28,900 nt of DNA from Candidatus Aenigmatarchaeota archaeon (GCA_049969275.1 JBMFPE010000002.1:1-28900); one strand, 5' to 3'; counted from the stretch's first letter, positions 15,137-16,932 are shown. Program-made: numbers and translations. The notes: generated by a model from the letters alone, not told the origin.

Positions 15137-16378
15137 ATGAAATTTTTAACTTTAGATGAGGCTAAGGTAGCCAATAAAACGGTTTTATTAAGAGTAGACA
15201 TTAACGTTCCTTACGATGAGCAGAAAAAACAAATACAGGATTCAGAAAGAATAAGAGAACATGCAAAGACAATAAAAGAATTAGCAGAAAAAAACGCAAA
15301 AGTAATAGTTCTTGCACATCAAGGAAGAAAGGGGGACCCTGACTTTATTCACCTAGACCAGCATGCAATTCTTTTATCAAAATACACAGGAAAAGAGGTT
15401 CAGTTTGTCGATGATATAATAGGAGAAAAGGCTATAAAGAAAATAAAAGCACTAAAGCCAGGGGAAATTCTTCTTTTGGATAACGTGAGATTTTTGGACG
15501 AGGAGACAGAGGAAAAAAGTTCAAAAGAACATGCAAAAAGTAGGATTGTTAAAACACTTAGCAAGTTTGCAGACATTTTTGTTAACGATGCTTTTTCTGC
15601 TTCTCACAGAAGCCATGCTTCTATCGTTGGCTTTACAGAAGTTTTGCCAAGCTATGCAGGAAGAGTAATGGAAAAAGAATTGAAATCTGAAGAGAGGGCT
15701 CTAGACCCTTTAGGGATAAACATTTTTGTTCTAGGAGGAGCAAAGCCTGACGATTGCTTGAATATAATTGAGTATATGTTTAAAAACAAGCCCGGCTCTA
15801 TAGAAAAAGTTTTGACTTGTGGCACAGTAGGAGAAATTTTTTTAGCGGCAAAAGGTTATGATTTGGGAAAAGAAACAAAGGAATTTTTTGCTAAAAAAGG
15901 TTTTGATAAATTGATATGCCAAGCTAAGAAATTGATCGAAAGATATGAGCTCGAGATAGAATTGCCAGTAGACGTTGCTTTTGAGGAAAACGGAAAAAGG
16001 AAAGAAATTCCTGTGAAAGATTTGCCTGTAGAAAAAATTTTGCAGGATATAGGGAGTGAGACTGCCAAGAAGTATGGAGAAATAATAAAAAGTGCAAGGA
16101 CTGTTGTGGTTAAGGGACCAGCAGGAGTTTACGAAAAGCAAGGGTTTGAACTGGGAACAAAGCTTATTCTTGAAGCAATAGCAAACTCAAAAGCTTTTTC
16201 TTTAATAGGTGGAGGGGACACTTTGGTTGCTATGGAAAAGCTTGGGTTGGATAAAAGTAAATTCTCTTACATAAGCTTGGGTGGAGGAGCTCTAATAACT
16301 TCTCTTTCTGGGAAGGAAATGCCAGGTGTGGAGGCTCTTTTAAAAGCAGCTAAAAAAATTAAGAAGAAAAGAAAGTAA
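15137..16378 (+). CDS. pgk: Phosphoglycerate kinase
   Basis: LLRVDINVP, AHQGR, LLDNVRF, FVNDAFSASHR, LGGAK, KGPAGVYE, GGGDT and ISLGGGA. Confidence 0.97.
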   Translation: MKFLTLDEAKVANKTVLLRVDINVPYDEQKKQIQDSERIREHAKTIKELAEKNAKVIVLAHQGRKGDPDFIHLDQHAILLSKYTGKEVQFVDDIIGEKAIKKIKALKPGEILLLDNVRFLDEETEEKSSKEHAKSRIVKTLSKFADIFVNDAFSASHRSHASIVGFTEVLPSYAGRVMEKELKSEERALDPLGINIFVLGGAKPDDCLNIIEYMFKNKPGSIEKVLTCGTVGEIFLAAKGYDLGKETKEFFAKKGFDKLICQAKKLIERYELEIELPVDVAFEENGKRKEIPVKDLPVEKILQDIGSETAKKYGEIIKSARTVVVKGPAGVYEKQGFELGTKLILEAIANSKAFSLIGGGDTLVAMEKLGLDKSKFSYISLGGGALITSLSGKEMPGVEALLKAAKKIKKKRK

Positions 16379-16399
16379 AAAAGAAGATACTTTATGGTT

Positions 16400-16415
16400 T
16401 GTCGCATATGCGACA
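16400..16415. repeat. Perfect 16-bp palindrome TGTCGCATATGCGACA (candidate operator)
   Basis: Reads identically on both strands, is 50% GC in an otherwise very AT-rich gap, and directly abuts ATTTAAAT. Confidence 0.85.
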
Positions 16416-16422
16416 TTTAAAT
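16415..16422 (+). promoter_or_regulatory. TATA box ATTTAAAT of the Cas2-like gene
   Basis: Centre is about 26 nt upstream of ATG 16445, the canonical archaeal spacing for a leaderless transcript. Confidence 0.6.
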
Positions 16423-16444
16423 GCACACAAACCAATAATAATTT

Positions 16445-16657
16445 ATGAAGAAAAATTTCATCATAATTTTTGATATACCAAACTCTAAAAAATCTCTTGC
16501 TAGAAAAATTCAAAGAGAATTAAACACCATCGGAGCGTGTATGTTACAAAAATCTGTTTGGAAATCTAGCAATTTAGGTGGTTTAAAAAAATTAGCTCAA
16601 AGTATCAAAAAAAACGATGGGAATGCGTTTATTTTAGAAGAAAAAGTGATTTTATGA
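16445..16657 (+). CDS. Stand-alone Cas2/VapD/PaaX-central-domain-like ferredoxin-fold protein
   Basis: IIIFDIP (compare Cas2 YDI) and LQKSVW (compare Cas2 VQxSVF and PaaX-like LQKSVW) with Cas2-like spacing. Own TATA box; ATGA overlap with acyP. Confidence 0.7.
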   Translation: MKKNFIIIFDIPNSKKSLARKIQRELNTIGACMLQKSVWKSSNLGGLKKLAQSIKKNDGNAFILEEKVIL

Positions 16658-16932
16658 AAAACGTTAGAATTCATGCTTTTGTCTCTGGTCTAGTCCAAGG
16701 AGTTAACTTTAGGTACTATACAAAGAAGTTTGCAGAAGGTTTGGGAATAGGTGGCTGGGTTAGAAATTTAAAAGACGGAAGAGTGGAAGTTCTAGCAGAA
16801 GGAAGCGAGGTAAGAATAAAACATTTCCTTGATTTTTTGAAAAAGGGACCTCCTGGTTCTAAAGTGATAAACGTTGAAGTAAACGAAGAAGAGTATAAGG
16901 GTGAGTTTAAGTTCTTCGATATTTTGTATTAA
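16654..16932 (+). CDS. acyP: Acylphosphatase
   Basis: VSGLVQGVNFR (catalytic Arg) and GWVRNLKDGRVEVLAEG (catalytic Asn). Confidence 0.95.
   Translation: MKNVRIHAFVSGLVQGVNFRYYTKKFAEGLGIGGWVRNLKDGRVEVLAEGSEVRIKHFLDFLKKGPPGSKVINVEVNEEEYKGEFKFFDILY

Follow-up and report, generated by a model that had tools for sequence, protein, structure and literature searches.

The window analyzed here is a 28,900-nt stretch of DNA from a Candidatus Aenigmatarchaeota archaeon (GCA_049969275.1, JBMFPE010000002.1:1-28900). It contains an open reading frame (ORF) of 70 aa (gene position 16445–16657, plus strand), the product of which is predicted to have the fold of Cas2. A perfect 16-nt palindrome with the half-site TGTCGCAT (16400–16415, no strand) was found in the region upstream of the ORF (16379–16444), which begins directly after the end of the pgk gene (position 16378). 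Comparison with related genes allows us to assume, with a probability of about 0.6, that the encoded protein is a stand-alone, sequence-specific DNA-binding autoregulator and that the palindrome is its own operator. The adjacent protein is the likely reader because the letters of the palindrome covary with the residues of this protein. The proposed DNA-reading residues are N13, K16, A19, R20, Q23 and K36.

The protein family was collected by a full HMMER scan of 1.8 billion representative proteins; a word-indexed protein search with the window protein returned the query itself as the sole match. The family comprises 51 clusters at 50% identity, nearly all with a length of 67–75 aa. Its consensus of about 68 aa is L.FDIP..R...NR.L....A...Q.SVW.S..L..IA..IK..GG.A.ILEEK, and the family profile matches the window protein with E = 1.5e-30. 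In the latter, the motifs FDIP and LQKSVW occupy residues 9–12 and 34–39, respectively. Family members were found in 64 of the 118 genomes of the order to which the window genome belongs, with 1–19 copies each, and in a phylum-wide sample only two genomes beyond this order contained them. The closest relative of the window protein is 56% identical, and the nearest one among the representative genomes of the order is only 51% identical. Public databases name the members either "CRISPR/Cas system-associated endoribonuclease Cas2" or "hypothetical", and a literature search found no paper on this family or on a stand-alone Cas2-fold DNA reader. The genome containing the window (assembly of 0.70 Mb (697 kb), 34.5% GC, 84% complete) has hot-spring metagenome-assembled genomes labelled Candidatus Aenigmatarchaeota as its close relatives. 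It contains five close paralogs (contigs C2, C33, C14, C1 and C6) and, on contig C5 (20185–20502), a more distant Cas2-like gene encoding 97 aa.

Modeling using AlphaFold2 with an alignment of 45 sequences led to a model with a predicted local distance difference test score (pLDDT) of 95.7 and with the elements b1 (5–10), a1 (16–28), b2 (32–35), b3 (38–41), a2 (44–56) and b4 (60–65). Cas2 chains ranked first in a Foldseek search (TMq 0.6–0.73), in which VapD 6zi0 was a low-ranking match (TMq 0.49). Cas2 was also first when VIA-align was run against 48,000 chains (Z 7.9 and 7.8). Residues 107–175 of PaaX (8a39) were matched with Z 6.8, and many generic ferredoxin-like domains reached similar scores. 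The window protein passed the cut-offs of PaaX_M (PF20803; 25.7 bits vs. 24) and TIGR01573 cas2 (26.1 vs. 24.5), failed that of Pfam CRISPR_Cas2 (PF09827; 19.3 vs. 23.8), and reached only 12.2 bits vs. 23 for ChrB_N; the C-terminal domain of ChrB is absent here, and four of 45 family members matched ChrB_N. The Pfam scan of the window protein found no domain besides PaaX_M and no helix-turn-helix (HTH), and a sequence search of the PDB with this single protein gave no match. In the family profile, FDI and Q.SVW align with YDI and Q.SVF of the archaeal Cas2 proteins SSO1404 and SSO8090. Aspartate D10 of the first strand corresponds to D10 of SSO1404 in this alignment and is conserved in at least 90% of the family members. 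The protein is strongly basic (isoelectric point (pI) 10.2; family median 9.9). A homodimer prediction scored 0.30 relative to a mark of 0.42, a value that counts neither for nor against dimerization.

The ORF is real, and its product is predicted with high confidence to have a Cas2-type ferredoxin fold. No Cas1 score in the genome exceeded the cut-off (best 12.7 bits), and a crude repeat scan based on 20-mer spacing found no CRISPR-like array, both in an assembly that is 84% complete. With no cas1 and no array, the protein is Cas2-derived yet is not a CRISPR Cas2, and the locus is not a CRISPR remnant. It is not a decayed PaaX either, since its relatives are all stand-alone proteins of about 68 aa; no longer, fused or PaaX-length relatives were found among 8000 candidates, which is weak evidence. 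A preliminary description of this DNA had claimed the Cas2 fold, the stand-alone state and the first-strand Asp, and these claims agree with the results above.

The 80 nt upstream of each gene were surveyed in 113 family loci from more than 40 genomes, with 2260 shuffled upstream regions as a control. A perfect 16-nt palindrome was present in 79 of the 113 loci compared with one of the 2260 shuffles, and 13 further loci contained a palindrome with one mismatch. This recurrence at most homologous loci supports the preliminary suggestion of a functional palindromic operator on the promoter. The half-sites have the consensus aTGTnAnAC, in which positions −5 and −3 are free to vary and positions −6, −4 and −1 are less variable; the window half-site fits this consensus up to the dyad, and the whole palindrome belongs to the class TGT-N10-ACA. 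The count of palindrome types scales with the paralog count, and in the window genome the copies on contigs C33, C14, C1 and C5 are each closely preceded by a different perfect palindrome. The significance of the window palindrome derives from this family context, since a lone perfect palindrome of 16 nt is not rare at the given GC content: 48 perfect palindromes of at least 16 nt were counted in the 697 kb, compared with about 20 expected according to our own estimate.

The recognition of individual palindromes was evaluated through the mutual information between protein columns and half-site positions. It was concentrated on columns 13, 16, 19, 20, 23 and 36. The first five form the i, i+3, i+4, i+7 face of helix 1 together with the preceding loop, and column 36 lies in the b2-b3 turn. 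The associations are nearly deterministic: R20 occurs with C at −5 in 20 of 20 cases, L20 with A at −6 in 11 of 11, R or K at 13 with C at −1 in 64 of 64, and K19 with C at −3 in 26 of 27. In addition, T13 and R36 are associated with T at −1 and W or F at 23 with a purine at −5. Residues of the loop and early helix track the centre of the site and later residues track its outer positions, a pattern that agrees with a helix extending from the dyad towards the ends of the site.

The distance between operators correlated with the distance over the six columns (r = 0.67). In partial Mantel tests, DNA correlated with the recognition columns given the rest of the protein (r = 0.65, p = 0.001), and the correlation of DNA with the rest given the recognition columns was not significant (r = 0.05). 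Random sets of six equally variable columns gave r of at most 0.21. The six columns were chosen on the same data; a segment test free of that choice gave r = 0.52 for residues 11–24 and 0.03–0.15 for all other segments.

The window protein has the signature N13 K16 S17 A19 R20 Q23 K36. Outside the recognition columns, its nearest relatives (51–53% identity) have quite different operators, and the proteins with the half-site TGTCGCA rank 41, 42 and 66 of 89. When the seven recognition columns are compared, its five best matches are exactly the proteins with operators starting with TGTCG, and they belong to three other genera. This match is the strongest single argument that the window copy may read the palindrome at 16400–16415. 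The window 16-mer occurs nowhere else in its own genome, even with two mismatches allowed, nor in its genus, and it is present in nine genomes of three other genera, compared with a chance expectation that we estimate at about 0.04.

These data are compatible with the following model. A homodimer with the two-fold axis of Cas2 would sit on the palindrome, with residue 13 of the b1-a1 loop and residue 36 of the b2-b3 turn directed towards the central base pairs. Residues 16, 19, 20 and 23, in the N-terminal half of helix 1, would follow each half-site outward, and the family-invariant R24 and N/Q23 would contact the conserved outer TGT. Since the site lies beside or inside the core promoter, its occupancy is predicted to block the recruitment of transcription factor B (TFB) and the TATA-binding protein (TBP) or of the polymerase, and the gene would thereby limit its own expression.

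The preliminary description had inferred that the gene could be held off by a separate, trans-acting repressor. In such a case, the palindrome would be the operator of another, unlinked repressor, and the Cas2-fold protein would be its cargo (a toxin, an RNase or a partner of PaaX-like regulators). The protein does contain no classical DNA-binding motif, and some operators are orphans without a cognate paralog. Its Cas2 and VapD relatives are nucleases (PMC3351183, PMC10491678). However, each paralog has its own palindrome, the number of types follows the number of paralogs, and it is residues of the neighbouring protein, rather than its overall relatedness, that predict the letters of the palindrome. 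Nor was a recurrent small partner or antitoxin-like gene found across 30 family loci, and about half of the loci consist of a single gene with a convergent gene after it. The failure to find PaaX-length relatives also speaks, weakly, against this alternative. It therefore seems improbable that the palindrome belongs to an unlinked repressor. The toxin or RNase role is likewise not supported, given the lack of an antitoxin-like partner and the presence of up to 17 operators per genome without a protection system.

The position of the palindromes relative to promoter elements was compared in the family. In loci anchored on the dyad, a T/A-rich element resembling the TFB recognition element (BRE) and TATA box ends immediately before the palindrome. 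In 54 of 78 non-redundant loci, the first base of the motif TTTA[TA] is located 12–18 nt before the dyad centre, and in most loci the TATA element ends 0–6 nt before the palindrome. The distance from the dyad to the ATG has peaks at 10–16 nt and at 24–28 nt, the latter often with a GGTGA-like leader; in some loci, two operators flank the TATA box. This geometry and the usual archaeal spacing from TATA to the start place the operator between the TATA box and the transcription start. This is the classical position of an archaeal repressor.

In the window, TTTAAAT (16416–16422, plus strand) is located directly 3' of the palindrome, with its centre 26 nt before the ATG, as had been described. It was taken in the preliminary description as the TATA box, with the palindrome over the BRE, and on this choice the mRNA would be leaderless. 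Such an overlap with the BRE is possible. The geometry of the family, however, favours another candidate, the TATA-like box CTTTATGG (16390–16397, plus strand), which begins 17 nt upstream of the dyad centre. If the family geometry holds here, this box would be the core promoter element and the operator would lie between it and the transcription start.

A perfect 8-nt inverted repeat, TGGTTTGT (16395–16402) and ACAAACCA (16427–16434), flanks the operator together with TTTAAAT. No counterpart of this outer repeat was seen at other family loci, and it may be due to chance. A solitary CRISPR-like repeat of 36 nt at 16395–16434 was considered and rejected, the outer repeat being real but without a counterpart elsewhere. 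A transcription terminator of pgk was also rejected, because the palindrome lacks both a loop and a T-run and because congeneric genomes do not contain the unit.

A palindrome close to a start codon could also function as a hairpin in RNA or single-stranded DNA (a 5' leader or a cruciform) to which an RRM-like fold binds, with autoregulation at the level of translation or RNA stability. Ferredoxin- and RRM-like folds, including that of Cas2, bind or cut RNA, and the window palindrome could be in the 5' leader if an upstream promoter is used. Nevertheless, a TATA element ending 0–6 nt before the palindrome would put the predicted start near the 3' edge of the palindrome, and the class with a distance of 10–16 nt would be leaderless. 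In addition, the dyad symmetry passes through the very centre of the sites. The two adjacent central nucleotides (−1 and +1) are complementary to each other in 91 of the 96 non-redundant sites, and the pairs CG, TA, GC and AT all occur. Neighbouring nucleotides are unable to pair in a hairpin, so the constraint is the two-fold symmetry of a duplex site. Regulation through a hairpin is thus very improbable.

A comparison with congeneric genomes indicated how the gene came to its present position. In four pgk-acyP loci from three congeneric genomes (G090, G091 and G093), the two genes are separated by a spacer of about 40 nt. In the alignment, the window contains about 260 nt in place of that spacer, including the promoter, the operator and the ORF. 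Homology with the congeners resumes about 12 nt before the ATG of acyP, and therefore the final codons of the ORF, together with its stop, derive from the old spacer. The inserted cassette (16379–16641, plus strand, approximate boundaries) thus comprises the promoter, the operator and nearly the entire ORF. Judged from these alignments, it is a recent insertion in this species, and the ancestral spacer upstream of acyP is displaced by it. The empty site in the congeners contains no palindrome. Acquisition from outside the genus is suggested by the 51% identity of the nearest relative and by an operator type otherwise known from other genera. The preliminary description had placed the gene in a glycolysis cluster. 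This is correct as regards its position, but the functional tie is not supported, because the congeners have pgk directly beside acyP and the place of the gene is incidental.

The acylphosphatase gene acyP (16654–16932, plus strand; Pfam Acylphosphatase, E = 9.5e-26) follows the Cas2-fold ORF, and its ATG overlaps the stop codon of the latter (ATGA). Owing to this overlap, acyP is probably co-transcribed from the operator-controlled promoter. With the promoter–operator–gene unit inserted between pgk and acyP, autoregulation of the Cas2-fold gene would probably extend to acyP.

The operators of the paralogs were also searched for in the genomes. The operator of the C14 paralog (half-site TGTTAGAC) was found in 13–14 copies in the window genome, all intergenic (contig C14, 6998–8295, and 10 further sites on contigs C4, C12, C22, C37, C40, C41 and C93). 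The flanks of the dispersed copies are mostly unrelated. Sites of this type precede one TFB gene, the paralog itself, a rubrerythrin gene, a class I Tyr/Trp-tRNA synthetase gene and a diphthamide synthase gene that is divergent with a HEPN gene; others are located near an M50 peptidase gene and a HerA-like gene. It is suggested that the sites act in trans. Of five congeners, three contain 11–17 copies and two less complete ones contain 1 and 4, while about 100 further genomes of the order lack the operator. The genomes with many sites also contain close orthologs of the C14 protein (76–85% identity), with exceptions in incomplete assemblies. This co-occurrence is not independent evidence because the genomes are kin.

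The C14 paralog sits between two TFB genes and is flanked by its palindrome at either end. Among the nine genomes in the genus of G084, this genome alone contains the C14-type operator. Its four copies and an 85%-identical ortholog are all located on one contig (C56) of this assembly (1.7 Mb, 4% contamination), which indicates either a transfer or a mis-binned contig.

Several genomes contain arrays without a family gene, in which 2–4 different family-type operators are spaced 20–45 nt apart. The window-type operator is a frequent member of these arrays. They were located at L153 1447–1537, L156 1501–1569, L157 668–703 and L159 1445–1516, and further ones at L160 1501–1535, L161 1501–1638 and L166 1501–1536. 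Some of them lie between convergent housekeeping genes (HerA-like/EF-1alpha; HIT/unknown). A conserved second target of the TGTGATAC-type operator was sought across five genomes; the neighbours differed and no conserved regulon was found. A window-type palindrome was seen upstream of orthologous genes of 156 aa in two genomes of the genus g16 (L160 1632–2102, plus strand; L162 916–1386, minus strand), and these genes are a possible conserved target of this operator type.

In the window genome, an orphan perfect operator with the half-site TGTCATAC, a type belonging to paralogs of other genomes, was found on contig C7 (16068–16083). It is located after a TATA-like box, is not followed by a family gene and directly adjoins a tRNA gene encoded on the other strand. 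The element CTTAAAATCACC.GAAGTGAA, some 40 nt upstream of this operator, is shared with the upstream region of the C1 paralog; a similar sequence precedes the two copies in genome G039 (L066 and L067).

Some other copies in the window genome should be described. The paralog on C33 (169–375) with its operator is located directly before secY (34-nt gap), after the apparent end of a ribosomal-protein gene. Its protein and operator type are also present in the congener G089, and it is another cassette heading an essential gene. The paralogs on C1 (27174–27356) and C6 (8757–8933, minus strand) end early at the same ...SAKY-stop, at an A-run; one base later, the reading frame would run on into the ILEE motif of the family. 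A shared frameshift, pseudogenes or a homopolymer assembly error could explain these stops. The C6 copy has no clear palindrome. A perfect palindrome of 22 nt, with TGT-N8-ACA at its core, lies 2 nt before the ATG of the C5 gene, and this gene looks like a member of a second family with the same architecture.

The orphan sites, the conserved D10 and the gain and loss of cassettes keep alive a reading as a mobile element or as another DNA transaction. Here, the protein would cut or nick DNA at specific sites, or would handle the DNA of a mobile cassette, and the same residues would recognize the palindrome that the Cas2-type Asp pair at the dimer axis cuts or recombines. Insertions and scattered operator copies would then be accounted for, as with REP/RAYT or homing elements. 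The conserved D10 is aligned with the catalytic Asp of Cas2, and a dimer of the Cas2 type would put the Asp pair over the dyad centre, judging from the covariation of columns 13 and 36 with position −1. The recent insertion at the window locus, the copy number of 0–19 among related genomes, the gene-less arrays of differing operators, some between convergent genes, and the double flanking of the C14 paralog would also fit. On the other hand, the empty congeneric site without a palindrome shows that the insertion was not targeted to such a site, and the site beside the gene is intact, unlike the targets of homing elements. A single operator can be present in 13–17 perfect genomic copies, and neither a methylase partner nor avoidance is seen. 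The position relative to TATA and the start codon is fixed within a few nt in most loci, which fits the control of a promoter, and the mostly unrelated flanks of dispersed copies show that these are not copies of a larger element. Overall, cutting or recombination at the palindrome appears unlikely.

A broader reading concerns the mobility of the whole unit. The family could consist of insertable cassettes of an operator and its reader, with a transferable code of about six residues, which capture downstream genes; the arrays would serve as docking or landing platforms, and the chemistry of D10 could be involved in the spread. This picture is speculative and, on the present data, rather doubtful. 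Two single-protein queries against viral contigs found no relatives, in a search of low sensitivity that needs exact words of 8 residues.

Returning to the autoregulator, several observations weigh against it. The window operator is located 29 nt before the ATG, farther than in most family loci, and has no second target in its own genome. For many perfect operators, the genome that carries them encodes no cognate paralog; one array of the near-complete genome G057 comprises four operator types, none of which matches a resident paralog. A tree-based test for independent co-change was powerless, as the 55-column tree is poorly supported and only 1–2 pairs lay on supported branches, and part of the covariation could therefore reflect shared ancestry. 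The Cas2 catalytic-type D10, conserved in most of the family, is not obviously needed by a pure regulator. Finally, PaaX, the best-studied relative, binds DNA through a winged helix that the window protein lacks, and its Cas2-like part is a module for dimerization or ligand binding.

If this protein does read duplex DNA, the Cas2 fold would also be a minimal sequence-specific DNA-binding domain of 68 residues, with an unusually legible code in which about one residue on a single helical face corresponds to one base. The labels "CRISPR-associated endoribonuclease Cas2" in the databases would need correction. Aenigmatarchaeota, which are tiny archaea with few recognizable regulators, would have a major lineage-specific regulator family, and a very small scaffold for engineered DNA recognition would be available. 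The result would also bear on the origin of Cas2 from a DNA-reading or a nuclease ancestor and would hint at how regulators of the ChrB type bind DNA. If the broader reading given above is correct, the cassettes would represent a new kind of mobile regulatory element and not an ordinary family of transcription factors. For the window itself, the glycolysis context is accidental, and the insertion probably rewired the expression of acyP.

A comparison with known systems indicated that Cas2 is the closest in fold. The Cas2 proteins SSO1404 (2ivy), SSO8090 (3exc) and that of S. pyogenes (5zyf) have the same b1-a1-b2-b3-a2-b4 fold, and [FY]DI at the end of b1 and Q.SV[WF] in b2-b3 are shared. Like Cas2, the window protein is small, basic and probably dimeric. 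Mutagenesis of Cas2 indicated that basic residues of its helix 1 face the nucleic acid. Unlike Cas2, the family occurs in the window genome without cas1 or an array, its members are shorter (68–70 aa vs. about 90–100 aa), and every member has a private palindrome, located in the promoter of its gene. The positions of helix 1 that are fixed in Cas2 vary in the family and match the site. The organization of VapD-type toxin–antitoxin systems is not matched, as there is no recurrent small partner and the flanking genes are pgk and acyP.

In the ESM Atlas, the closest structural match from outside the family is the N-terminal domain of the regulator ChrB from Ochrobactrum tritici (ChrB_N, PF20229; TM 0.87–0.90 over residues 1–70). 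ChrB is a dimeric autoregulator that responds to chromate; its target is an inverted repeat in the promoter of its own gene, and the substitutions R18A and R23A abolish repression and make expression constitutive (PMC3817168). By number, these two residues would fall in helix 1, like R20 and R24 of the window protein. Unlike the window protein, ChrB is a bacterial, single-copy protein of about 300 aa with a C-terminal sensor domain, and its mode of DNA binding is not solved. ChrB can be considered the closest functional precedent. The E. coli protein PaaX (8a39) is a dimeric repressor of palindromic operators. Its central PaaX_M domain is Cas2-like, and the window protein passes the cut-off for this domain and superposes on it; both the N-terminal winged helix and the C-terminal PaaX_C domain are missing from the 70-aa protein.

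The working model, in which a ferredoxin-like dimer reads a palindrome by its first helices, would be analogous to that of the DNA-binding domains of papillomavirus E2 and EBNA1. These domains are ferredoxin-like b-a-b-b-a-b dimers whose first helices read the halves of short palindromes. Their dimer is a barrel, unlike that of Cas2, and the proteins belong to viruses of eukaryotes. They were not among the listed Foldseek and VIA-align matches, and the searches detected no sequence relation to the window protein. The small autoregulated repressors of archaea and bacteria of the RHH, Lrp and ArsR types, with palindromic operators covering the core promoter, follow the same logic as that proposed here, namely a dimer, a dyad site by the TATA box or the start, self-repression and small regulons. 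The present family differs from them in its fold, in its many paralogs with private sites, in its insertable cassettes and in the gene-less arrays of mixed operators.

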